This document shows, piece after piece, positions 20,508 through 32,038 of a stretch of DNA of 64,000 bases. The position numbers were made by a program, and so were the translations under genes. Below the pieces are notes generated by a model that was not told the origin of the DNA, searched no databases, and saw nothing but the letters and a program-made list of their open reading frames with translations. Origin of the DNA: an uncultured Gammaproteobacteria bacterium (GTDB lineage Bacteria > Patescibacteriota > Patescibacteriia > JAHIZJ01); contig CAZQLY010000001.1 in NCBI GenBank assembly GCA_964594455.1, forward strand, positions 69,989-133,988. Direction: 5' to 3'. How positions within the stretch are numbered: position 1 is the stretch's first letter; the number at the start of each line of letters is the position of its first letter.

Positions 20508-21125
20508 ATCCATCCCTCCTTTCAGATATGGCCATAAGCGCTTTTTCACCATAATCAAACTAGCATTTGTGCGTATAATGTGCAATAAAGCTGTATTATG
20601 TATATTTTCCCTTCAAGGTCCCTAGTTTTTTAATAATTTATATGGTTTACAATATCTATAAAAATGGTTTTTTGGGGTGATTTTATGATATTAACCTATG
20701 AATACATATGATTTTTTTCAATTAATGCTTGACAGGGTTTCACCATTCGTGGTAACCTATGAAATGGTATGAAAAATAACAGTTTCAGAAGGCGCCTTCA
20801 TTAACCTATTAAGAAAAGCTATTAAGGGCTCGCACCCCGATCTGGCCAAAAATACACCAGCAAACAGCAGGCCGAGCAGACTGCATTAAGCAGCTGGTGG
20901 GCAAAGTCGAGCCCATTATTAAGTACTAAAGCGTACCATTATGGCAAAGACAAAAACTTCAGCCTATGGCAAGCAGAAACAGAAAATCGTTCCTGTTCGC
21001 TCATATAAAAGGAACGGCAAACGGATAAAACCGCATCGCCGCTCCACCCGGAATAAAATAGGTTGTGAGTCAATCGGGGTGTGGACTTTTGATAAATCCT
21101 ACTAAATAAATTATACATCACTACC

Positions 21126-22838
21126 GTGGTAAATAAAACATCAAGCGAAAAGAAATTATTATCAATCAGCCAAGTGTCGAAAATCTTTGGTATCCACCAA
21201 GATACACTTCGTAATTGGGAGAAAAAAGGACTCATTACTCCTCTCCGGGTGGGTCCTCGTAAGGACAGAAAATATCGCCCTCAAGATATTGAAAGAATCG
21301 CCAACGATAAAAGTCTCGTAGATGAATTTATTTCTCCGGTGGCTGATGAGCGAGGGAAAATGAATCTCACCCAGTTAAAGCAGTTTCTCTGGAGAAGCGC
21401 TGATATATTACGTGGAAAAATCGATAGTTCCGATTACAAAAAGTATATTTTTGGACTTCTTTTTTATAAGCGCATTAGTGATGTGTGGGATGAAGAATAT
21501 AAAAAAGTTTTGGAAGAGTTTCACAATGAAGATTTAGCACGCAGTGATCACAATCACCGCTTTCAGGTTCCAAAAGATTGTCAGTGGTCAGAGATTCAAA
21601 AACAGGCAGAAGGAATCGGGCATAAGCTCAACGAAATTTTTGATAAACTTACCAACGCAAACAACCCGAAGCTGGATAAGATATTTGATGATCTTGATTT
21701 TGCGAATAAGGACAAATTTCCTAATGAGACACTCCAGCGTCTGGTCAATCATTTTTCTCAATTCAATTTTGGCGATAATTATATCAGTTCCGATCTTTTG
21801 GGTGACGCATACGAATACCTTATTGAGCAGTTCGCGGCGGATGCTGGAAAAAAAGGTGGGGAGTTCTACACACCCCGTGAAGTAGAGCGTGTAATTATTA
21901 ATATTTTGAAACCGCACGAAAAAGACCACATCTATGACATGGCGGCTGGTTCGGGCGGGTTCTTACTCGAGGCATATCATTATCTTAAAAGTCAGGCAAG
22001 CGAAAAAAAAGCTCGCTCACTGTATCTCTATGGCCAAGAAATAAATATTGGCACATACGCGATTGCAAAGATTAATATGTTTCTGCACGGACTTGATGGT
22101 GCGGACATTCAGCGCGGTGACACGCTAGCGGATCCGAAATTTCTCAATCCCGATGGCTCACTTAAAACATTCGACATTTGCGTGGCAAATCCACCATATT
22201 CTGTAAAAGAATGGGAAACTGAAACATTTAGAGCCGACAAATACGGTCGGATTACTGACTATGAAATGCCCCCGACCAAAAAAGCCGATTATGCCTTTGT
22301 TTTACACATGGTGAAGTCAATGAATGAAAATGGTCGTGCCGGAATTGTACTTCCCCATGGCGTGCTTTTCCGTGGTGGTGCAGAGGGTCGTATCCGCGAA
22401 AAACTCATCAAAGATGATCTCATTGAAGCAATTATTGCTTTACCGCCTAAACTATTTTATGGCACAGGGATACCTGCAGCGATCGTAATATTTAATAAGA
22501 ATAAACCAGAGGAACATAAGAATAAAATTCTCATCATTGACGCTGAAAAGGATTTCGAGGAGGGGAAAAATCAAAATCGCCTTCGCAAGAAAGATATTGA
22601 GAAAATCGTTTTAGCCTTTGATGGGTATCGGGATATAGAAAAATATGCCCGTGTAGTAGATATTAAAGAATTAGAAGAAAACGAATTTAATCTAAATGTT
22701 CGTAGATATATTGAGAATGGTGAGGATGAGGAAGTGGTGGATGTCAAAACAGTATGGAGCGAGTTAAAGGATATTGAAAAAGAGCGCGAGGTGGTTGATA
22801 AAAAAGTCGAGGGGTATTTAAAGGAGTTGGAGTATTAA
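21126..22838 (+). CDS. hsdM: Type I restriction-modification system methyltransferase HsdM, with an in-frame N-terminal HTH (excisionase/MerR-like) extension
   Basis: 'NPPYS' N6-adenine methyltransferase motif. HsdM N-domain 'LWRSADILRGKIDSSDYKKYIFGLLFYKRISD'. The first ~78 residues ('ISQVSKIFGIHQDTLRNWEKKGLITPLRVGPRKDRKYRPQDIERI') look like an HTH_17/Xis-type DNA-binding domain. The ORF begins at GTG 21126. An internal ATG at 21360 (MNLTQLKQFLW...) matches canonical HsdM starts. Confidence 0.85.
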   Translation: MVNKTSSEKKLLSISQVSKIFGIHQDTLRNWEKKGLITPLRVGPRKDRKYRPQDIERIANDKSLVDEFISPVADERGKMNLTQLKQFLWRSADILRGKIDSSDYKKYIFGLLFYKRISDVWDEEYKKVLEEFHNEDLARSDHNHRFQVPKDCQWSEIQKQAEGIGHKLNEIFDKLTNANNPKLDKIFDDLDFANKDKFPNETLQRLVNHFSQFNFGDNYISSDLLGDAYEYLIEQFAADAGKKGGEFYTPREVERVIINILKPHEKDHIYDMAAGSGGFLLEAYHYLKSQASEKKARSLYLYGQEINIGTYAIAKINMFLHGLDGADIQRGDTLADPKFLNPDGSLKTFDICVANPPYSVKEWETETFRADKYGRITDYEMPPTKKADYAFVLHMVKSMNENGRAGIVLPHGVLFRGGAEGRIREKLIKDDLIEAIIALPPKLFYGTGIPAAIVIFNKNKPEEHKNKILIIDAEKDFEEGKNQNRLRKKDIEKIVLAFDGYRDIEKYARVVDIKELEENEFNLNVRRYIENGEDEEVVDVKTVWSELKDIEKEREVVDKKVEGYLKELEY

Positions 22839-22841
22839 ATA

Positions 22842-24293
22842 ATGAAAACAGAGATTTCTAACAATAGGATGATAAATGGGCAAACGAAAAATTTGCAAAT
22901 TAAACATTTAAGCAAAGTAAATGTTATTTTTGGCAAAAATGGAACTGGTAAAAGTAGTTTCTTAAGAAATCTCTATCAATCAGATTCAGAGAATTTTCAC
23001 TTAATTGTACCTGAGAGAGGTGGTGCAGAAATGCGGCAAAATTCTGGGATATTAGATCAGGAAAATAATCCTCAACAAAAGAAGGCAGTTAGAAGATGGA
23101 ACTTCGATTCAGAATATCGAAGCAGAGCAATTTCTAGAGCAACTAACATTCTCACTTCACTGGGATACAATACGGCCCATAACATTCAATCCAAAGAGGT
23201 GTCAGCTGAGGAATTAACTACACTATTTAGGGTTTTCTTGCCGGAGTTTAAAGTAATATTTAACTCTAGCGCCCCGTTTAATCTTGAAATTTTCCGTGAG
23301 ATTAATGGAAATGAAGAAAAAATAACAGATGCAAAGCAGTTATCTTCTGGGCAAGTTGAAGCATTATCACTAGCCGCAGATATCATTACTCAAGCCATTT
23401 TGTGGGACGCGACAGAAAAAACTCTCTTAATTGATGAACCCGATGTTCACCTTCATACTGATTTAGAAAACAGATTTGCAATTTTTATTAATGAGATAGC
23501 CAAAAGATTTGGCGTACAAGTTATTATTGCCACCCATTCTTCCGGCCTAATCGCAAGCTTACTGAGTTTAATAAAAGAAGTTGGAATTTTATGCTTTGAT
23601 AAAAATAGTGAAGAGATTTCTGCTATACAGAAGGATCAGGCATCTATTTTTACAAATTTATTGAGCATTGAGTTGTCCTTGGCGGTCGTTTTGAATAGGA
23701 AAATAGTCATTGTTGAAGGCAATGATGATTTTCTGGTTTGGAATCAGGCAACACGTTCGCAGCAATTTGACGATATTGCATTAATACAGGCGAATGGTAG
23801 CGATATATTAAAATACAAAAATAATGCGGAGAAAATTTTAGAAGCTGTTCTTGATAGAAATTGTCAACTTGGTGTTACTTTACTTGATGGTGATAACAAA
23901 CAAAAGTTTACTAATCAACAAAATGATAAACTACCTTGCGAAAGATTAAATTGTTATAGCTTAGAAAACTTATTGTTAACCAACGAAGTTCTACAAATAA
24001 TCAAACCTGACATTGATCTGAACAACGAACTTAAAGTTCTTAAAGGTGAAGATAATATTACCGATGATGAAAAAAATATTCTTGATGGGGTTATTAAGGA
24101 CAAACAACACACAAAAATACCCAAGGAACTGATAAAAAAAATTCATTCATATATTGACGAACACTCATCGTCACGCGATTGGAGAATTATTATTGGTAAA
24201 AGTCTGGGTATAAATATGCCCTCTGGGGAATTAGCGTCTTTTTTAGGGGGAGACATTGTGAAATATATTTGGAATGAGAATAAAGAAATATGA
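22842..24293 (+). CDS. ABC-type ATPase fused to a Toprim-like domain (OLD-family / PARIS AriA-AriB-like / GajA-like nuclease)
   Basis: Walker A 'GKNGTGKSS', ABC signature-like 'QLSSGQVEALSLA', Walker B 'LLIDEPDVHLH', H-loop 'ATHSS'. C-terminal 'KIVIVEGNDDF' ... 'LLDGDNK' resembles the Toprim/DUF4435 E and DxD motifs. Sits directly after the hsdM stop. Confidence 0.55.
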   Translation: MKTEISNNRMINGQTKNLQIKHLSKVNVIFGKNGTGKSSFLRNLYQSDSENFHLIVPERGGAEMRQNSGILDQENNPQQKKAVRRWNFDSEYRSRAISRATNILTSLGYNTAHNIQSKEVSAEELTTLFRVFLPEFKVIFNSSAPFNLEIFREINGNEEKITDAKQLSSGQVEALSLAADIITQAILWDATEKTLLIDEPDVHLHTDLENRFAIFINEIAKRFGVQVIIATHSSGLIASLLSLIKEVGILCFDKNSEEISAIQKDQASIFTNLLSIELSLAVVLNRKIVIVEGNDDFLVWNQATRSQQFDDIALIQANGSDILKYKNNAEKILEAVLDRNCQLGVTLLDGDNKQKFTNQQNDKLPCERLNCYSLENLLLTNEVLQIIKPDIDLNNELKVLKGEDNITDDEKNILDGVIKDKQHTKIPKELIKKIHSYIDEHSSSRDWRIIIGKSLGINMPSGELASFLGGDIVKYIWNENKEI

Positions 24294-24682
24294 CAGAAGT
24301 TGAAAAATTACAAATCTCAATTAGTCGAGAGCACTCTGATGTTAAGGGTGAAATCAGTGAAATTTTTAAAGATCTAAATGCTAGTGTTAAGGCAGACTAC
24401 GTGCGCCTTTCTGAAAGCGAGCTAGCGATGCAGGTGATTATTTTTTTAACAACTGCTTTTGCGGGTGGAGCACTGTGGGATGTACTAAAGTGGTCGATAA
24501 AAGAGCTGTATAAAAAACACCCTAAAGCGATGGTTGAAATTCGTGATTCGGATTCTATTATGTACGCGGTTAAAGGAGACTTAAGTATTACGGTGATAGT
24601 TGCCCCAGATAGGGCAAAAGAGTTTGAACACATAAACACGCTCGACGATTTACGGAAGCATTTAGAGTCGACTAAAAGATGA
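24290..24682 (+). CDS. hypothetical small protein, translationally coupled partner of the ATPase-Toprim gene
   Basis: ATGA overlap with the upstream gene. 130 aa with no recognised motif. Confidence 0.4.
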   Translation: MTEVEKLQISISREHSDVKGEISEIFKDLNASVKADYVRLSESELAMQVIIFLTTAFAGGALWDVLKWSIKELYKKHPKAMVEIRDSDSIMYAVKGDLSITVIVAPDRAKEFEHINTLDDLRKHLESTKR

Positions 24683-24837
24683 AAAATAATACAACACAAA
24701 AGAATATTCCGAGCGGGTGGAAACTAAAAAAATTGAGTAATGTTTTGGATTATGAACGACCAGATGCCTATATTGAAAAAAAGCGCGGGATTGTTGACAA
24801 AAAAGTTGGAGGGTATTTAAAGGAATTAAAATATTAA
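24679..24837 (+). pseudogene. chimeric remnant ORF: hsdS 5' fragment (~33 codons) fused in frame to the hsdM 3' end (~19 codons)
   Basis: Nucleotides 24679-24778 are ~90% identical to the hsdS start at 25722-25820. Nucleotides 24781-24837 are ~80% identical to the hsdM 3' end at 22782-22838. The joint lies at the shared microhomology ATATTG(A/T)AAAAAG. Translation gives MKNNTTQKNIPSGWKLKKLSNVLDYERPDAYIEKKRGIVDKKVGGYLKELKY*. Confidence 0.6.
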
Positions 24838-24840
24838 TTT

Positions 24841-25239
24841 ATGAACGAGAAAAGACTAAAACATTTGGAGTTAATTCAAGGGGTCGTCACCAGAATGGGC
24901 TCAAATCTCTTTACATTAAGAGGTTGGATGATAACGCTTGTCGTCGGTCTGTCTGTTGCTTTTTTGGAGGTTGGGCGTAATGAATTGCAAATTATACTAG
25001 TATTCGTTGTTTTAATATTTTGGATCCACGATGCGTACTTCCTTTCTTTGGAGCGAAGCTACCGATGCATGTACGACAAAGTTAGGAAATTAACAGAGGA
25101 TGAGATTGATTTTTCAATGGATATTTCGGAATTTAATAAGTTAAGGGCGACATCCATTTGGTACTGCATGATATCCGGTACTCTGGCGTATTTTTATATA
25201 CCGACTCTCGTATTGATAGGAATAATAAGTATATTTTAA
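24841..25239 (+). CDS. small three-TM membrane protein (SLATT-like / TM effector candidate)
   Basis: 132 aa with three predicted hydrophobic helices (WMITLVVGLSVAFLEV; IILVFVVLIFWI; IWYCMISGTLAYFYIPTLVLIGIISIF). Starts 3 nt after the chimeric scar and ends 2 nt before the TIR gene. Confidence 0.5.
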   Translation: MNEKRLKHLELIQGVVTRMGSNLFTLRGWMITLVVGLSVAFLEVGRNELQIILVFVVLIFWIHDAYFLSLERSYRCMYDKVRKLTEDEIDFSMDISEFNKLRATSIWYCMISGTLAYFYIPTLVLIGIISIF

Positions 25240-25241
25240 TT

Positions 25242-25721
25242 ATGACAAGAAAAATATTTTACAGTTTTCGTTTTGATGACGACGTAATGAGGGTTCAGCA
25301 AATCCGAAATATAGGAGTTATCGAAGACAACAAGCCTGTTACGGCTAACAAATGGGAAGAAATTAAAAGTGGCGGTGATTCTGCGATTCAAAAATGGATT
25401 GATGCTAGCATTGCCCGATCTGAATGCGTCGTTGTGTTAATTGGAAAAAATACTTCACAAAGTCGTTGGGTTGATTACGAAATCAGAAAAGCTTGGAACG
25501 ATGGTAAGGGCTTAGTGGGTATCTACATTCACAATTTAAAAGACCCAAGGTATGGAACCTCTGATAAAGGCACCAATCCTTTTGAACAGATAGGATTAAA
25601 AAATGGAAAAAAATTATCTGAATATGTTTCTGTTTATAACCCAGACACAGATGCCTACAACTATATAGCTAAATACATAGATCAAATTGTCGAGAAAGGA
25701 ATCGATTCGCGGAATAAATAA
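25242..25721 (+). CDS. TIR-domain protein, ThsB-like (DUF1863-type)
   Basis: 'KIFYSFRFDDD' (TIR βA FxSY..D start), 'VVVLIGKNTSQSRWVDYEIRKAW' with a conserved Glu near residue 80, and 'GLVGIYIHN'. This pattern resembles Thoeris ThsB-type TIR proteins as recalled from memory. Confidence 0.55.
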   Translation: MTRKIFYSFRFDDDVMRVQQIRNIGVIEDNKPVTANKWEEIKSGGDSAIQKWIDASIARSECVVVLIGKNTSQSRWVDYEIRKAWNDGKGLVGIYIHNLKDPRYGTSDKGTNPFEQIGLKNGKKLSEYVSVYNPDTDAYNYIAKYIDQIVEKGIDSRNK

Positions 25722-26882
25722 ATGAAAACTGACACAATACAACAAAATACTCCGAGTGGATGGAAACTCAAAAAATTGAGTGATGTTTTGGATTATGAAC
25801 GACCAGATGCCTATATTGTAAAAAGTACAAGCTACAACGACAAAGCAAAGACCCCAGTGCTTACCGCAAACAAATCCTTTATCTTGGGATATACAGATGA
25901 GGATTTCGGAATTTATAAAAATGTTCCTGCAATAATTTTTGATGATTTTACCACTGACAGCAAGTTTGTAGATTTTCCGTTTAAGGTTAAGTCTTCAGCG
26001 ATTAAAATCTTAAAAGAAAAAAATAAAGAGATAGATCTGCGATTTGTATTTGAAAAAATGAAGTCAGTGAATTTCCCTACAGGAAGTCATAAGCGTTTCT
26101 ATATTTCGCAGTATCAAAATTTAGACATAACAGTTCCCCCGATCAAAGAACAGCAAAAGATTGCAGAGATATTGGGAGGAGTTGATGAGGATATTGCGAA
26201 GACGCAGGAAGTGATTGAGGCGACCGAGAAGCTCAAGCGCGGATTGATGCAACAGCTTTTTACTCGCGGGATTGGGCATACAAAGTTCAAAGATACAGAG
26301 ATTGGAGAGATTCCAGTAGAATGGAAGTTGGAACAATTAAGAGATGTGGCTGATTTTATAAACGGAAAAGCACACGAAAGAGATATTACTGAATATGGTC
26401 ATTATGTTGTTATCAACTCAAAATTTATTTCTACAAATGGAGAGGTTGCAAAACGTTCAGATAAAAATTTGATCCCATTAAGTATTGGGGATATTGCAAT
26501 GGTAATGAGCGATGTCCCTAATGGCAAGGCGATTGCAAAATGTTTTTATGTTTTAGAAAATAATAAGTATACCCTGAATCAGAGAATCTGCTCACTTCGT
26601 GCAAAAAATATCTATAGTAGATTTTTGTATTATGTCGTAAACAGAAATCAATATTTTCTTAAACATGACGACGGAGTTGGACAAACAAATTTAAGAAAAG
26701 ATGAAGTGTTAAACTGCCCCGTCCAAGTTCCGCCAATTAAAGAACAGAAAAAGATCGTCAGAATTATTGAAGCTGTCGATGAAAAGATTTTGATTAATAA
26801 GAAATTAAAAGAAAAACTTACCCAACTCAAAAAAGGCCTGATGCAGGATCTTTTAAGTGGGATGAAGAGAGTAAAAATATGA
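25722..26882 (+). CDS. hsdS: Type I restriction-modification system specificity subunit HsdS
   Basis: Two target-recognition-domain halves, each followed by a conserved 'PPIKEQ(Q/K)KI..IL..VDE.I' repeat (residues ~139 and ~334). Gene position between hsdM and hsdR. Confidence 0.85.
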   Translation: MKTDTIQQNTPSGWKLKKLSDVLDYERPDAYIVKSTSYNDKAKTPVLTANKSFILGYTDEDFGIYKNVPAIIFDDFTTDSKFVDFPFKVKSSAIKILKEKNKEIDLRFVFEKMKSVNFPTGSHKRFYISQYQNLDITVPPIKEQQKIAEILGGVDEDIAKTQEVIEATEKLKRGLMQQLFTRGIGHTKFKDTEIGEIPVEWKLEQLRDVADFINGKAHERDITEYGHYVVINSKFISTNGEVAKRSDKNLIPLSIGDIAMVMSDVPNGKAIAKCFYVLENNKYTLNQRICSLRAKNIYSRFLYYVVNRNQYFLKHDDGVGQTNLRKDEVLNCPVQVPPIKEQKKIVRIIEAVDEKILINKKLKEKLTQLKKGLMQDLLSGMKRVKI

Positions 26883-27562
26883 AAGATGATATGGAGAAAA
26901 AATGGGAACAAAATCATTTGACTCTTTGGCAGGATGATTCCTCACGAATAGAAGAATTCTTCAAACGATTTGGTGTAGAAATGTCGCAATCCTATAATAA
27001 TCTTTTCAATCTGGATTATGATTTCATCCAGCCAGCTATTTATCTAATTGGGAAAATTGAGAAGGTCATAGAGGTATGCGATTTTTTGAACTCTCTTGCG
27101 AAAAATAATCATGATGACGTTGATAAGATTAAAATATTTTATTTAGTTTCACATGCCGAAATTATTATCAATACTTTTACCGCAAATTCGGCCGGTATGA
27201 ATAAAAGTGATTTAGTTGATTCCTTTTTTGAGCCCGTTAAGGATAAATTACAGTATACCTTGCAGCTCACGAGTGAGGATACGAATAAATTAAGCAAAAT
27301 GAATCAACAAATTACTCCAAGCAGGATATTGTACAAATTGCGCAACGAATATGCTCATCAGGGTAATTTTACGGGTAAGATTTTTAAATTGCTCACAGAT
27401 GAAGAAAAGGTATCCAACCTATTTTCGTTCGATTGGGATATCCCGAAAGCACAACCGCTTGATGTTTGTGGTCTAACAAGATTAACATACGATCAGTTTC
27501 TTCATATATATTTTTCAGCTTTTAAGTGGCATTTTGAAGACTATATAAAAAAACATTCATGA
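26879..27562 (+). CDS. hypothetical protein with a HEPN-like R-x4-H motif, embedded between hsdS and hsdR
   Basis: 'KLRNEYAHQG' fits the Rx4-6H HEPN signature. ATGA overlaps with both hsdS and hsdR. Otherwise no recognised motif. Confidence 0.3.
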   Translation: MKDDMEKKWEQNHLTLWQDDSSRIEEFFKRFGVEMSQSYNNLFNLDYDFIQPAIYLIGKIEKVIEVCDFLNSLAKNNHDDVDKIKIFYLVSHAEIIINTFTANSAGMNKSDLVDSFFEPVKDKLQYTLQLTSEDTNKLSKMNQQITPSRILYKLRNEYAHQGNFTGKIFKLLTDEEKVSNLFSFDWDIPKAQPLDVCGLTRLTYDQFLHIYFSAFKWHFEDYIKKHS

Positions 27563-30477
27563 AATTTAACGAACAGGTAACAGTAGAAAATTATATTATC
27601 AAGTTTATTCAAAATAAGCTTGGTTATGAATACGTTAAGCCAGAGGAATTTGCTAAATACCGTGATCTTGAGAGTGAATATATTATCACCCCACTTTTAG
27701 AGAATGCTATTAAGAACCTCAATCAAGATATTACAGAAAATGAAATTAAAAATGTCATTCGCGAAGTCAAAAAGATTGATACAAATCAAGGTTTCCTAGA
27801 GGCCTTGAGAAACGGAGTTAACTTAAAAAATCCCAAGACAGGCAAGAAGCACGATTATAAATTACTTGATTTTGAGAATCCTGAGAATAATCAATTTGTC
27901 GTTACCAATCAATTTTATTTCGAGGGCGACAGTGAGAATATTCGACCTGATGTTATGATTTTTGTTAACGGATTGCCACTTGTGGATATTGAAGCAAAGA
28001 GCCCGACTGCCTCAGAGGGTGTCAGCTTTGAGAATGGAATGGATCAGATTAAGCGATACGAAAAGGTAGCCCGAAAATTATTCATTCCAAATTGTTTTAA
28101 TATTGCTAGTGACGGACTTAAAACGGTATATGGCGCGACTGGCGCACCGAAACAGTACTTTTTTCAATGGCGCGATGAGGATAAAGAAAAAGAGATGGGT
28201 GGCGAACTTGAGATGACCTTGTTTGCACTTTTAGCAAAGGAAAATTTCTTGGATATTGTGCAGAATTTTATACTGTTCGAAAAAGAGAAAGAAATGCTCG
28301 TGAAGAAAATTACTCGATATCAACAAATGCGTGCGACGAATAAGATTGTCGAGCGAGTGGTGAATAAGGAAAAGCGACAAGGTTTAATTTGGCACACACA
28401 AGGTTCAGGTAAGACATTAACCATGTTTTTCACTGCGTGGAAATTACGCTTTAATAAATTGTTGAATAATCCAAAGGTTTTTATTTTGGTTGACCGAGTT
28501 GATTTAGATGATCAGATATTTGAAACGTTTACTAACGCCGGGGGTAAAAATGTCATTCGTGTTATTTCCCGAAAAGATTTAGAAGAGAAGATTCAGTCCC
28601 CAATGAGTGGTATATTTATCACTACCATTCAAAAATTTTCAGAACTCGGTAGCAAGGTAGAAAATTTAGAAGAGAATGTGATTATTCTTTCTGATGAAGC
28701 ACACCGCGGTGATGAGGGAGTGTCAGGTATTAATATGCGTAACGCATTTAAAAAAGCGTTTTTCTTCGGGTTTACTGGTACGCCAATCGATAAAACGCAT
28801 ACAAATACATTTCGCAATTACGAAGGTGAGGGTAAGCGCTATCTTGATTATTATTCCATTCAGCAGGCAATTGATGATGGCGCGACCATTCCCGTTACCT
28901 ATGAAGCGCGGTTGTCTAAGTTTTCTATTGATGAGGAAAAGTTAGATCAGCAGTTTGATGAGATTGCTGGTGATCTTTCAGATAAGCACAAAACTGAATT
29001 GGTAAAGAAATATGGAAAGAAGGCAGCACTTGTGAAACTACCAAAACGTATGGAGGCAATAGCACGTGATATAGTGGAGCATTATAAACTATATATAGAA
29101 CCGAATGGCTTTAAGGCGCAAGTTGTGGCTTACGATCGTGAAGCTGTTGCTGGGTATAAAAAGTTACTTGATGAATTAGTGCCAGCTGAATGGTCTGCCG
29201 TGGTGTATTCGCCCGGTGATCCCAACAGTGATGCCGATGATCTGAAGGCGTATAACACGAGCAAAAACGAGAGAGAGAAGATTATTGAACGATTTAAAGA
29301 TCCGAAATCTCCTCTTAAATTTCTTTTAGTCTGTGATATGTTGCTGACTGGTTTTGATGCACCTGTTGAACAAGTAATGTACCTGGATAAACCACTCCGC
29401 GATCATAATTTATTGCAAGCGATCGCGCGAACGAACAGGGTTTACAATAAAAAAAAGGAAGCGGGAAAAATCATTGATTATTATGGGATAACTAGGAACT
29501 TATACGATGCGCTTGATTTTGATGAGGATATAGTCGATTCCGCGATGATTGATATAGATAGAGTCAAGCAAAGGTTCACTGATGTGTTGGATGATGTCAT
29601 GAAGATTTTCACTGGGGTCAATATTGAGGACCCTTCAATGGATAATTTGCGGCGTTGTTTAAAAATTTTCATTGATAATCAAGATAAGCAAAAATATTTT
29701 GTCGAAAAATATACGAAACTTAAGAGCTTATTTGAATTTTTATCGCCAGATCCATTCTTGAAACAGTATGTCCGCAAGTTTGAATGGCTCACCAGTTTTT
29801 ATCTAGCTTTTTTGAAAGAATATCGTAGTGAAGAGGATAGATATTTACTGGAAGAATATGGTGAAAAAGTAAAAGAACTGATTCAAAAGAGTGATATTAT
29901 TGACTACGAAGGTATAACTAAGAATTTTCGGGAGCTCAAGGTCAATGAATTGTATACCCTTGAACGTCTCAAAGGCATGGACGACGAGGAAAAGGCGCTC
30001 AATTTGGAGAAAATGCTTAAGCAGGAAATTTCTATTAAACTTGATGAAGATCCTGCCTTCCAAAAGTTTAGCGAGCGCCTCACGGCAATACGGCGAGAGT
30101 TCGAACAAAATCAAATTGATCTTGCTGAGAGGATTCGCAGATATGAGGAATTAATGAAAGATATTAAATCTAAAGGTGATGAAGCCAAGGAGCTAGGGCT
30201 TGATCTAAAAGAATATGCACTATATGTGATCTCTCAGGAGTTTGCTAGTGATAAAGAGGTGGATGTTATTAAAGAGTTCGTTAGAGAGTTACGCGTTCGT
30301 ATTGAGGATGATCTAGACGCTGGTTGGCAAGATTCTTCAAAACGCGACGTATTTATTAAGGATATCAAACAAACCTTGCAAGAATTGATTTTAAAAGACT
30401 ATAAAGGCCGACTGAAGGTTAAAGATTTTCCAAAATTCATGAATAGACTTGTAGATATCATTATCAAGAAATTCTAA
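27559..30477 (+). CDS. hsdR: Type I restriction enzyme endonuclease/helicase subunit HsdR
   Basis: SF2 helicase motif I 'TQGSGKTLTMFF' and motif II 'LSDEAHRG'. 972 aa. Gene position after hsdS. Confidence 0.9.
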   Translation: MKFNEQVTVENYIIKFIQNKLGYEYVKPEEFAKYRDLESEYIITPLLENAIKNLNQDITENEIKNVIREVKKIDTNQGFLEALRNGVNLKNPKTGKKHDYKLLDFENPENNQFVVTNQFYFEGDSENIRPDVMIFVNGLPLVDIEAKSPTASEGVSFENGMDQIKRYEKVARKLFIPNCFNIASDGLKTVYGATGAPKQYFFQWRDEDKEKEMGGELEMTLFALLAKENFLDIVQNFILFEKEKEMLVKKITRYQQMRATNKIVERVVNKEKRQGLIWHTQGSGKTLTMFFTAWKLRFNKLLNNPKVFILVDRVDLDDQIFETFTNAGGKNVIRVISRKDLEEKIQSPMSGIFITTIQKFSELGSKVENLEENVIILSDEAHRGDEGVSGINMRNAFKKAFFFGFTGTPIDKTHTNTFRNYEGEGKRYLDYYSIQQAIDDGATIPVTYEARLSKFSIDEEKLDQQFDEIAGDLSDKHKTELVKKYGKKAALVKLPKRMEAIARDIVEHYKLYIEPNGFKAQVVAYDREAVAGYKKLLDELVPAEWSAVVYSPGDPNSDADDLKAYNTSKNEREKIIERFKDPKSPLKFLLVCDMLLTGFDAPVEQVMYLDKPLRDHNLLQAIARTNRVYNKKKEAGKIIDYYGITRNLYDALDFDEDIVDSAMIDIDRVKQRFTDVLDDVMKIFTGVNIEDPSMDNLRRCLKIFIDNQDKQKYFVEKYTKLKSLFEFLSPDPFLKQYVRKFEWLTSFYLAFLKEYRSEEDRYLLEEYGEKVKELIQKSDIIDYEGITKNFRELKVNELYTLERLKGMDDEEKALNLEKMLKQEISIKLDEDPAFQKFSERLTAIRREFEQNQIDLAERIRRYEELMKDIKSKGDEAKELGLDLKEYALYVISQEFASDKEVDVIKEFVRELRVRIEDDLDAGWQDSSKRDVFIKDIKQTLQELILKDYKGRLKVKDFPKFMNRLVDIIIKKF

Positions 30478-30481
30478 TACA

Positions 30482-31021
30482 ATGACTAATCGCATTACCT
30501 ATACCGTAAAAAGAAGCAAGCGAGCAAAACTAATGCGTCTCGCGGTGTATTGTGATGGTCGGGTTGTAGTAACTGCCCCTATAAATATTCAGGAGTCAAT
30601 AATTCAAAAAATCGTACGGGAGAAGAGTCAATGGTTAGTCCAAAAGATAGATTTTTTTGCACAATTTAAAAATCAACCGATAGCTCGATATAGTAGAAAT
30701 CATTTTCTACAACACAAGGAGAGTGCTCACGAGTTTGTGTCATCGCGCCTAGCCAATCTAAACAAAAAATATGGTTATAATTATAATCAAATTAACATAA
30801 AAAATCAGAAAACTCGCTGGGGTAGTTGTTCAAAAAAAGGAAATTTGAATTTTAATTATAAAATAAAGTTTTTACCAACAAAATTGGCCGACTATATTAT
30901 TGTGCATGAGCTTTGTCATTTGAAAGAGTTTAACCATTCGCGTAAATTTTGGAACCTAGTTGGTAGAACTTTTGCAAATTATAAGGACATCAGAAAGGAA
31001 ATGGTCGCATGGAGAGTGTAA
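30482..31021 (+). CDS. DUF45/YgjP-like (M48-related) zinc metallopeptidase
   Basis: 'IIVHELCHLKEFNHSRKFWNL' is the HExxH...NHS..FW signature of DUF45. The family is frequently hsdR-linked. Confidence 0.75.
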   Translation: MTNRITYTVKRSKRAKLMRLAVYCDGRVVVTAPINIQESIIQKIVREKSQWLVQKIDFFAQFKNQPIARYSRNHFLQHKESAHEFVSSRLANLNKKYGYNYNQINIKNQKTRWGSCSKKGNLNFNYKIKFLPTKLADYIIVHELCHLKEFNHSRKFWNLVGRTFANYKDIRKEMVAWRV

Positions 31022-31383
31022 ATATAATTAATATTATATTTAATGGAATTAATGAGGGCAAAAAAGAAGCGGCCCAGATTTTGTGGGATATACTTATATC
31101 ATTTTTTCACCAGTACATATTATTCTTTTTAGCGATTGTAATTAGTCTATTGATTTTTTCTTTTACCAAAGCCGTACTCGGTAGGTGGGGCATGCTCGGA
31201 AGTGTGCTTTATAATATATTGTATTTTGGGATTTTATTTATTGTGGGTTCAATTTGGGGACCCAGTATATTTGTAAGCAATTATTTTCATCTTGCTTGCA
31301 CAGTAGTATTGTATCCTATTTGTTATCAGATAGTGGGTTTTATTCTAAATACAACAGGACTTCGGAGAAGCTATGCTCAATAA
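31009..31383 (+). CDS. hypothetical membrane protein
   Basis: 124-aa ORF with 3-4 hydrophobic helices. Confidence 0.3.
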   Translation: MESVNIINIIFNGINEGKKEAAQILWDILISFFHQYILFFLAIVISLLIFSFTKAVLGRWGMLGSVLYNILYFGILFIVGSIWGPSIFVSNYFHLACTVVLYPICYQIVGFILNTTGLRRSYAQ

Positions 31384-31519
31384 TTATTCATCTTATTTTA
31401 ACCATTGGAGCGGAAGCTGTCCGTAGCGATGCATCGCAGACGACGCTCTGGTAAAACTATGTTGCCAGAGCACTTTTAAAGAAAAAGATCAGTTAATATT
31501 AATTTATTAATTAAAACCT

Positions 31520-32038
31520 ATGGAACAACTTGCTACTAACACCACTACTTGGTATGTCATTTTGCCAATCATGCTTATCATGCTGGCAGGAATTATTTGG
31601 TTTATCATTGGGTTGAAGACAGTCATTTGGAAAAAGGTTGTTATGATATTATTGGGATTTTTTTCTTTTATTGGATTCTCGGCAGTTTTATTGAGTGTTT
31701 ATTATCAGACCAGCACTGTTTTTTCCGGATCATTTGATTTATACGCTTATTCAGTCTTTGCTCCTGAGCGGGATCCTTTTGATATTCCTGAAGGGGATTA
31801 TGATACTGTCTTGGCTACCTTTGGAGTGTATAAGGAAAATGGAGAATTAAAAGTTATGCGTGTGCCAAATTCTTCTACTCAGTATGGAGCCTATCTATTT
31901 AGTCCTGGCAAATGGATGGTGGTTGATGTAAATGATGATGTTATTACTCTCTCGGAATCCGAGCCAAATATAACTGAGATGTCTTTTTGGTGGGCAATGA
32001 CTAAAGATTTGTACAACCTTAAAGTGTCAGTAGAGTAG
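31520..32038 (+). CDS. hypothetical membrane-anchored protein
   Basis: Two N-terminal TM helices followed by a soluble domain. Followed by a terminator. Confidence 0.35.
   Translation: MEQLATNTTTWYVILPIMLIMLAGIIWFIIGLKTVIWKKVVMILLGFFSFIGFSAVLLSVYYQTSTVFSGSFDLYAYSVFAPERDPFDIPEGDYDTVLATFGVYKENGELKVMRVPNSSTQYGAYLFSPGKWMVVDVNDDVITLSESEPNITEMSFWWAMTKDLYNLKVSVE

Follow-up and report, generated by a model that had tools for sequence, protein, structure and literature searches.

We analyzed a 64,000-nucleotide stretch of DNA (hereafter, the window) from an uncultured bacterium titled Gammaproteobacteria and placed in Patescibacteriota by GTDB (assembly GCA_964594455.1, contig CAZQLY010000001.1), in which a type I restriction-modification (R-M) operon occupies positions 21126–31021. 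Listing and translation of the open reading frames (ORFs) revealed ten consecutive genes on the + strand in the following order: hsdM, an ABC-ATPase/Toprim gene, a 130-aa gene, a 52-aa ORF, a gene for a protein with three transmembrane helices (3-TM), a ThsB-type TIR gene, hsdS, a 227-aa HEPN-like gene, hsdR, and a YgjP/DUF45 peptidase gene. The coordinates give successive junctions of +3, −4, −4, +3, +2, 0, −4, −4, and +4 nt. A first-pass annotation had described this order with gaps of 0–4 nt or ATGA overlaps at almost all junctions, and all the genes that it listed were recovered on the + strand at the same coordinates; however, it had missed the 52-aa ORF at 24679–24837, which lies between two cassettes.

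We propose that the operon was acquired horizontally, that its hsdM–hsdS (M–S) slot holds two units stacked at a scar and its hsdS–hsdR (S–R) slot the HEPN-like gene, and that the inserts constitute three autonomous second-line defenses. Taken as a whole, including the view that the two junctions act as cassette slots in this R-M family carried mainly by Patescibacteria, this reading was given a probability of about 0.72.

Backbone genes of the operon

The gene hsdM (21126–22838) encodes a type I methyltransferase with an N-terminal MerR-type helix-turn-helix (HTH). The protein matched Pfam N6_Mtase (1.1e-109) and HsdM_N (9.6e-27), and scored 286.6 bits against TIGR00497 (cutoff 242.75). Its N-terminus matched MerR_1 (2e-12) and HTH_17, the HTH lying at residues about 13–70 (window positions 21126–21365 correspond approximately to residues 1–80). 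The HTH was kept in close relatives, in which most alignments began at query residues 1–13, and was also present in the P0264 locus; locus L045 was without this region. The HTH could autoregulate the operon, which would bear on the expression of all embedded cassettes.

The specificity subunit gene hsdS (25722–26882) encodes two target-recognition domains, which are variable among relatives; the protein matched Methylase_S in two stretches (1.8e-33) and PADLOC Specificity_I (1e-60), and DNA-level matches to relatives were confined to the central and C-terminal conserved regions. The restriction/translocase subunit encoded by hsdR (27559–30477) matched HSDR_N (1.6e-39) and SWI2_SNF2 (1.8e-69), plus ResIII, T1R_D3-like, and T1RH-like_C, and scored 586 bits against TIGR00348 (cutoff 284.55). 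Thus, on profile evidence, the domains that characterize HsdM, HsdS, and HsdR of a type I R-M system are all present. The last backbone gene (30482–31021) encodes a metallopeptidase with an HELCH motif that matched YgjP-like (2.4e-42). This DUF45 gene had been counted among the inserts, but it lies 3′ of hsdR in nearly all relatives and belongs to the conserved backbone.

Cassette slots in related loci

A scan of one genome per species yielded 78 loci, cited here by L numbers. HsdM was 65–89% identical in amino acid sequence to that of the window in approximately 57 of them, and HsdR showed 64–88% amino acid identity among relatives of this backbone family. The titled relatives were mostly metagenome-assembled genomes (MAGs) of Patescibacteria (candidate phyla radiation) of many classes; some were titled Gammaproteobacteria, Pseudomonadales, Bdellovibrionales, or archaeon. 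Mapping by tblastn indicated that the order hsdM, hsdS, hsdR, and DUF45 is constant and that both inter-subunit gaps hold extra DNA.

Occupancy was counted in the 38 loci where hsdM, hsdS, and hsdR were all placed. The M–S gap was filled in 35/38 and the S–R gap likewise in 35/38, with both filled in 33/38 and only one locus bare (L029). Accessory ORFs of at least 90 aa lay on the operon strand in 96 of 97 cases. This co-orientation, together with the filling of each gap in 35/38 loci, indicated that the arrangement is not due to chance. The distance from hsdM to hsdR was 1200–6168 nt (median, 3380 nt); that of the window was 4720 nt, and four loci were larger. Since 33/38 relatives have both gaps filled with varied cassettes, the window is a typical and fairly full member of the family.

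Conservation at the DNA level followed the same division. hsdM, the two conserved segments of hsdS, hsdR, and the DUF45 gene matched 27–68 loci, the inserts matched 0–2, and the edges of conservation were sharp and located at gene ends. The 110 accessory ORFs fell into about 64 clusters, several of which were found in either slot. Pfam and PADLOC matches in the slots comprised Bro-N/PDC-S13 (10), Shedu SduA (6), RhuM/PDC-S05 (5), ThsB_TIR (5), NYN (4), DUF3800 (4), and SMODS (3, with SLATT_4 and AGS_C), together with PIN, trypsin/Trypco2, Abi_alpha, ThsA_Macro, AAA_13, and Fic; IS200 transposases occurred in two slots. The idea of the first-pass annotation that the R-M operon serves as a scaffold for defense genes was therefore borne out by the neighborhood comparison of related hsdM/hsdS loci that it had suggested: the backbone is constant, the gaps of relatives hold variable cassettes of defense type, and the scaffold is a property of the whole R-M family.

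Recombination scar in the M–S slot

The 52-aa ORF (24679–24837) joins, in one reading frame, the 5′ end of an hsdS to the 3′ end of an hsdM, as its first ~33 residues matched the N-terminus of HsdS and its last ~19 residues the C-terminus of HsdM. Two direct repeats underlie this chimera: D1 (24674–24781, 108 nt), 87% identical to the true hsdS start at 25717–25824, and D2 (24770–24845, 76 nt), 82% identical to the true hsdM end at 22771–22846. The hsdS and hsdM segments meet in a 12-nt microhomology, ATATTG.AAAAAG (24770–24781). Because D1 and D2 meet in this shared string, the M–S slot was interpreted as two joined units, each consisting of an hsdM end, a cassette, and an hsdS start. As judged from the junction, the joining event is microhomology-mediated and removed all that lay between hsdS codon ~32 and the codon of hsdM that precedes its stop by 19. 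The reading frame continues through the fusion, the ATGA overlap is kept upstream, and the hsdM stop and a GGAG box are kept downstream, 3 nt before the next ATG; translational coupling was therefore preserved across the scar.

The 130-aa gene (24290–24682) was also explained by this structure. Initial profile searches with its product gave no match, and hydropathy indicated one hydrophobic helix at residues 45–63. In an exhaustive phmmer search, the protein gave 50 matches, many of which were proteins of 530–560 aa carrying the domain at residues 1–130 and, after it, an entire HsdS (two Methylase_S stretches; Specificity_I with E-values as low as 1e-101). A stand-alone homologue (54%) lies directly 5′ of, and overlaps, hsdS in another MerR-HsdM operon; no homologue was present in any of the fetched related loci. 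In the window, the hsdS remnant has a start codon that overlaps with the stop of the 130-aa gene. On account of this overlap and the HsdS-fused homologues, we concluded that the gene is a separately encoded N-terminal extension of HsdS left with the left-hand unit, by which an uncharacterized N-terminal domain of HsdS is identified. The gene had been taken as the small partner of the ATPase-Toprim gene; this assignment was rejected, because the gene was absent from all five of the ATPase homologue contexts (5/5) and its homologues are HsdS N-terminal extensions.

The right-hand unit (hsdM tail, 3-TM, TIR, and hsdS) is arranged as in L002 and L018. Its 3-TM and TIR cassette was 87–89% identical in nucleotide sequence to those of the two loci, in which hsdM and hsdR were 76–78% identical, and this contrast fits an exchange of the cassette later than the divergence of the backbone.

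Comparable traces were found in relatives. Remnants of the hsdM tail, 19–76 nt long, lay exactly between cassette genes in L003, L004, L015, L020, L021, and L047. A search for hsdM tails at E≤1e-5 returned nine sites in seven loci including the window, versus zero in reversed and one in shuffled decoys. Remnants of the hsdR 5′ end were found in the S–R slots of L001 and L041; L023 and L046 carried hsdS 3′ remnants, as did, more weakly, L032. These remnants suggest that the movement of cassettes together with the ends of backbone genes recurs across this family, which is borne mostly by Patescibacteria. Many apparent extra copies of hsdS 5′ and 3′ ends were disregarded, because they stemmed from queries with incomplete hsdS coordinates (L050_S5 and L043_S3).

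As a separate observation, L046 (11611–13517) contained no recognizable hsdS between hsdM and hsdR, and only a 25-nt hsdS 3′ remnant (100% identical to L034) was left, which suggests that the specificity gene was lost through the same kind of recombination.

The metagenome assembler might have placed in tandem the different cassettes that two strain variants carry between the same hsdM and hsdS; the relatives are MAGs, and misassembly classically arises where conserved flanks enclose variable cassettes. However, the duplicated flanks are 82–87% identical and are thus not a collapsed repeat, the hsdS-to-hsdM joint shares ~12 nt, which is too short to be bridged in k-mer assembly, and six independent assemblies, produced in different studies, contain similar remnants. 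Given the divergence of the repeats and the shortness of the shared string (~12 nt), we consider a misassembly highly improbable. An integron-type platform was also rejected, as no recombinase was present among the ORFs from 13.7 to 36.2 kb and the inter-cassette repeats are remnants of backbone coding sequence and not structured sites.

The same traces could also be expected if the inserts were selfish or neutral passengers, linked to a selected mobile operon, of no benefit to the host, and some perhaps decaying. Besides the scars and remnants of backbone genes, this hitch-hiking would account for the IS200-type transposases in two slots and the heavy turnover of slot contents (about 64 clusters among 110 ORFs), and two elements do look like debris, namely the 52-aa fusion ORF and the orphan gene for an N-terminal domain of HsdS. 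Nevertheless, the inserts of the window are all intact ORFs with conserved catalytic residues, those of relatives are overwhelmingly of defense families and co-oriented, and reading frames and start/stop coupling were kept even across the scar. Passengers without function are therefore, in our estimate, a rather improbable explanation of the operon as a whole.

ATPase-Toprim protein of the first cassette

The first cassette of the M–S slot (22842–24293) encodes a compact, single-chain protein of 483 aa, in which an ABC-ATPase is fused to a Toprim nuclease domain. Pfam assigned the ATPase to AAA_21/AAA_15 (ABC-type). In an alignment of 25 homologues, the Walker A residues G31, K37, and S38, the signature residues S168 and G170, the Walker B residues D198, P200, and D201, and the H-loop residue H232 were invariant. 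The same alignment showed conservation of the Toprim motifs IVEGNDD (E292, G293, D295, and D296), LLDGD (D349, with D351 nearly invariant), and E375, while no Pfam model for Toprim, OLD, or DUF4435 matched the protein. The best PADLOC match was AriAB (64.7 bits, 1.7e-18; residues 117–436), among a crowd that included ATPase-Toprim_I-B (residues 187–418), GajA, and PtuA. The NCBIfam model of the retron Eco8 effector also matched weakly. Profile matches to PDB entries were all weak and comprised the PtuA-type ATPases of retrons, AriA (1e-13, ATPase lobe only), the OLD protein of Eco8, OLD (6p74), and GajA.

Similar to OLD, PARIS (AriA/AriB), GajA, retron Eco8, and HEC-04, the protein has an ABC ATPase and, C-terminal to it, a Toprim domain that carries a catalytic Glu and DxD, and its family is, like nucleases of the OLD/PARIS type, often embedded in systems of the R-M type. 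In contrast, it is much shorter than these proteins (483 aa) and has almost no coiled-coil insert. It belongs to a distinct family of ~480-aa proteins (124 matches), the members of which stand alone: homologues were found in the S–R slot of a type I R-M system of Saccharibacteria (L084/85), adjoining a gene for a large Eco57I/TaqI_C-type methyltransferase (L082), near other methyltransferase genes (L083), and in L036. The protein is most likely a single-gene, OLD/PARIS-like effector. An anticodon nuclease of the PrrC/RloC type was rejected, as the protein had no AAA_13 match and has a Toprim C-terminus instead; one protein matching AAA_13, the PrrC/RloC-type model, sits in a slot of a relative.

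3-TM and TIR pair of the second cassette

The second cassette of the M–S slot consists of a 3-TM gene (24841–25239, 132 aa) and a TIR gene (25242–25721, 159 aa). Their products matched PADLOC PDC-M50A (5.5e-39) and PDC-M50B (5.7e-56), respectively, and the genes are 2 nt apart, as is required of the candidate system PDC-M50. The TIR protein also matched Pfam ThsB_TIR (5e-26; a rescan beginning at the ATG gave 3.2e-26, with 92 bits for a cutoff of 21.2) and PADLOC ThsB (3.5e-65), in agreement with the pair of a 3-TM protein and a ThsB-like TIR protein read from the sequence beforehand. In the longer ORF that opens at TTG 25158, the alignments to the models begin at residue 29; the start of the gene was therefore set at ATG 25242. 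Among PDB entries, it matched 8wcf_A (2.4e-44) and ThsB1 (9b7d/6lhy, 4e-18). Residue E80 in the motif WVDYEI aligned with the Glu of the motif WVRYEI of ThsB1 (9b7d), which we take to be the catalytic E85 of Bacillus cereus ThsB. Judged from these alignments, a ThsB-type TIR protein with the catalytic glutamate, by which Thoeris systems are generally recognized, is present in the window.

The 3-TM protein is presumably a membrane effector. Hydropathy indicated three hydrophobic helices, and an AlphaFold2 model (pLDDT 87) consisted of two long helices and a third, C-terminal one. The alignment showed conserved Arg, Asp, and Glu residues and Arg-rich segments predicted to be cytosolic; the invariant polar residues H8, Q13, R18, N22, R27, D64, E71, R72, R75, R82, and D90 cluster on non-membrane segments. 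The protein has 176 homologues, and a Pfam match was found in none of the 120 that were listed.

In every context examined, the 3-TM gene abuts a ThsB-type TIR gene. Within this R-M family, the pair was found in the window, L002, L018, and, in reversed order, L006; elsewhere, it occurred in another type I R-M family (L086–88), as a stand-alone pair (L089), in an island of type II R-M and GmrSD genes (L090/91), and beside a SinI R-M system on a plasmid of Ligilactobacillus (hhalign probability 99.6%). On a Desulforapulum plasmid, a related TIR gene has an uncharacterized gene of 132 aa immediately upstream; this is probably a further occurrence of the pair.

Types I and II of Thoeris were rejected for the window, as the sole partner of its TIR protein is the 132-aa 3-TM protein, which has no SIR2, SLOG, or Macro match. 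Type V Thoeris consists of ThsB and ThsF, a three-TM DUF2270 effector activated by 3′ cyclic ADP-ribose (3'cADPR) (bioRxiv 10.64898/2025.12.03.692087). The window TIR protein is 55–59% identical to TIR proteins listed there as type V (Table S1), both systems are two-gene operons of a TIR protein and a small three-TM protein, and the catalytic Glu is kept. Moreover, the conserved Arg-rich cytosolic segments of the window protein may be compared with the predicted positively charged pockets of ThsF (bioRxiv 10.64898/2025.12.03.692087). Unlike ThsF, the 3-TM protein gave no match to PF10028 (DUF2270) at E≤10 and only a sub-threshold one to DUF3278, and PADLOC lists its family only as the candidate PDC-M50. 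Membership of the ThsF family is unproven because PF10028 does not match. DUF2270 neighbors of related TIR genes were also sought on plasmids, and only SIR2, TIR, Macro, or PDC-M50A-like partners were found. A literature search on PDB entry 8WCF and on PDC-M50 returned nothing. We regard the pair as "type V-like" Thoeris, with a mechanism proposed by analogy.

Several related arrangements were observed. In L006 (6013–6931), the TIR gene comes first, followed by the TM gene (40% and 55% identity) and two more unknown genes before hsdS. L086 (1933–8716), of the other type I R-M family, has, upstream of hsdM, a serine recombinase gene and an hsdS of half size, which suggests phase-variable specificity; its hsdM–hsdS gap holds the TM gene together with a TIR fragment of 109 aa and a weak-TIR gene of 228 aa. 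On Lactiplantibacillus and Secundilactobacillus plasmids (L097 and L104), TIR proteins of the same subfamily are encoded with SIR2 proteins, as in type I Thoeris, directly 3′ of a type I hsdR; the association of TIR systems with type I R-M therefore extends to plasmids of Firmicutes. On an Enterobacter IncHI2 plasmid (L094, 1947–5453), a related TIR gene is clustered with two TIR genes and an annotated CBASS cGAMP-activated phospholipase.

HEPN-like protein of the S–R slot

The S–R slot is occupied by a gene for a 227-aa protein (26879–27562), with which profile searches gave no family match. It belongs to a small undescribed family of 23 members, all unannotated. S91, H92, and E94 were invariant in this family. 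The HEPN motif noticed in the first-pass annotation was confirmed as R155-N-E-Y-A-H160: H160 was invariant among the 23 sequences and R155 was conserved in 22/23, in accordance with the R-x4-6-H pattern of HEPN proteins. Homologues were found in the S–R slot of L006 (79%), in the M–S slot of an unrelated type I R-M system (L080), and once outside R-M (L079). The nearest known proteins are abortive-infection proteins and HEPN RNase toxins, namely the HEPN/MNT toxins 7ae2, 8xdj, and 5yep, AbiV (9bj5), and HEC-08. A HEPN-like RNase is the best reading of this protein, which we hold with moderate confidence.

Proposed defense functions and origin of the operon

Profile searches with the inserted proteins thus returned defense families and not the housekeeping families that would have spoken against defense cassettes. 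The combination had been presented as possibly an undescribed system. This did not hold, since embedding has been described, the 3-TM and TIR pair corresponds to PDC-M50, and the modules occur separately and do not form one system. Along with the gene identities, the slot architecture of the family, and the scars, this modularity was directly observed. All of the modules are also found away from type I R-M, so that they probably serve as autonomous back-up defenses, and the three inserts are most plausibly independent modules that share the transcription and mobility of the R-M operon.

Alternatively, one or more embedded proteins might bind the R-M complex and fire only when an anti-restriction protein of a phage disables it, in which case embedding would stem from functional dependence and not from co-location alone. 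PrrC in EcoprrI is a precedent for such a guard, the reasoning of Payne et al. points the same way, ABC-ATPase defenses such as PARIS and Gabija are triggered by Ocr-like anti-restriction proteins (bioRxiv 10.1101/2024.01.29.577857), and the tight translational coupling in the window would favor co-assembly. In opposition to this, each module was also found without a surrounding type I R-M system (L083, L089, L090/91, L093, and L079), modules also sit in the other of the two slots or within different R-M families, and the window ATPase lacks a match to the PrrC/RloC-type model AAA_13. A guard function is hence unlikely as a general account, although somewhat less so than the hitch-hiking discussed above; for individual modules, both are possible.

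For autonomous modules, the following scheme can be drawn. All the genes would be transcribed from the R-M promoter and translationally coupled, with a GGAG ribosome-binding site and a stop, placed immediately before the following ATG, provided by the retained hsdM tail. The first line would be formed by the R-M enzyme, and the three cassettes would be autonomous, second-line defenses of the abortive type. The ATPase may sense a phage cue and release the Toprim nuclease. The TIR protein may sense infection and produce a signal derived from ADP-ribose; once the 3-TM protein has bound this signal on its Arg-rich cytosolic face, it would damage the membrane. The HEPN-like protein would cleave RNA.

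Several points weigh against the proposed reading. Its functional statements, namely co-transcription, defense activity, triggers, and effector chemistry, are inferred from sequence and structure prediction. The ATPase fits the known models of OLD, PARIS, and Gabija weakly and mostly over the ATPase lobe, and the failure of the DUF2270 (ThsF) model to recognize the 3-TM protein leaves architecture and TIR similarity as the basis of the analogy to type V. The scan for promoters and terminators was uninformative, being no better than that of shuffled sequence. That the cassette is more similar than the backbone in L002/L018 could be due in part to selection and not to recent transfer. Finally, the search for hsdM tails approached background at E≤1e-3, with 31 sites versus 21–22 in decoys; only the stronger remnants were therefore counted, and the weak matches (E 1e-5 to 1e-3; for example, L077 and part of L011) were dropped after this decoy control.

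That type I R-M loci are hotspots for embedded defense genes was noted in the first-pass annotation. Payne, Hughes, Fineran, and Jackson (2024) described defense genes nested within Hma, BREX, DISARM, and type I R-M systems as "guilt-by-embedding", with 96.7% co-orientation, seven validated embedded systems, and 145 untested candidates, which are the PADLOC PDC models including PDC-M50 (bioRxiv 10.1101/2024.01.29.577857). TgvAB in the type I R-M system of Vibrio cholerae VPI-2 was experimentally studied (PMC11411939), as was PrrC in EcoprrI, and a Patescibacteria MAG was reported to carry a type I R-M system on a genomic island with a co-located ATP-dependent endonuclease (PMC12455944). The window agrees with the embedded systems of Payne et al. 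in having co-oriented accessory defense genes between hsd genes, and ABC-ATPase/Toprim, HEPN, and TIR are among their embedded families. It differs from their description in that nearly all members of a single, mostly Patescibacteria-borne R-M family have both gaps filled, and in that two cassettes are stacked in one gap with an hsdS::hsdM scar; the preprint does not mention recombination or remnants. Embedding itself is therefore already described, and what is new is the scar, which shows how the modules were stacked: cassettes travel along with the ends of backbone genes and are piled up by illegitimate recombination. The published account of embedding left the mechanism open, and the preserved junction allows the stacking event to be reconstructed base by base.

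Going further, the two junctions may form an integrase-free cassette dock, in which cassettes carrying short remnants of the hsdM tail (including its stop and ribosome-binding site), hsdS head, or hsdR head are swapped by homologous recombination between diverged operons and stacked by microhomology, and one mobile, promoter-bearing R-M operon may be the main platform for the expression of a changing repertoire of abortive-infection genes in very small genomes. We put this extension forward tentatively, at somewhat less than even odds. Patescibacteria, with their small genomes, would pack diverse second-line defenses into one mobile R-M operon; to our knowledge, they are mostly without CRISPR. 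Three compact candidates for testing are offered by the window: the 483-aa ATPase-Toprim protein, the pair of the 132-aa TM and 159-aa TIR proteins, and the 227-aa HEPN-like protein.

Genomic setting of the operon

The operon is flanked upstream by genes for ArgRS and a GT4 glycosyltransferase, and downstream by those for YggU, two response regulators, and IleRS. The G+C content falls from ~0.43 in the flanks to 0.33–0.39 across the operon (22000–32000). No tRNA gene marking an integration site was found, and no recombinase was present among the ORFs scanned. The dip in G+C and the housekeeping flanks are consistent with a horizontally acquired island that lacks a tRNA gene or integrase. No terminator-like site was found on the + strand within 21126–31021, where the whole scan performed no better than on shuffles.

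An ORF of 124 aa (31009–31383, + strand) overlaps the stop of the DUF45 gene by 13 nt. Hydropathy indicated 3–4 hydrophobic helices, and family searches gave no match. The ORF falls outside the DNA-conserved backbone, and a homologue (53%) was found at the same position in L006 only, which also shares the 227-aa gene. Its membership of the operon is uncertain, and it is possibly a further accessory gene.

Just 5′ of hsdM, a very basic 54-aa ORF is located at 20941–21105. It is flanked by a 22-nt imperfect inverted repeat (20820–20841 and 21073–21094), and the stretch 20800–21100 was matched at the DNA level by one related locus. This stretch may represent the left edge or a regulatory region of the mobile unit.

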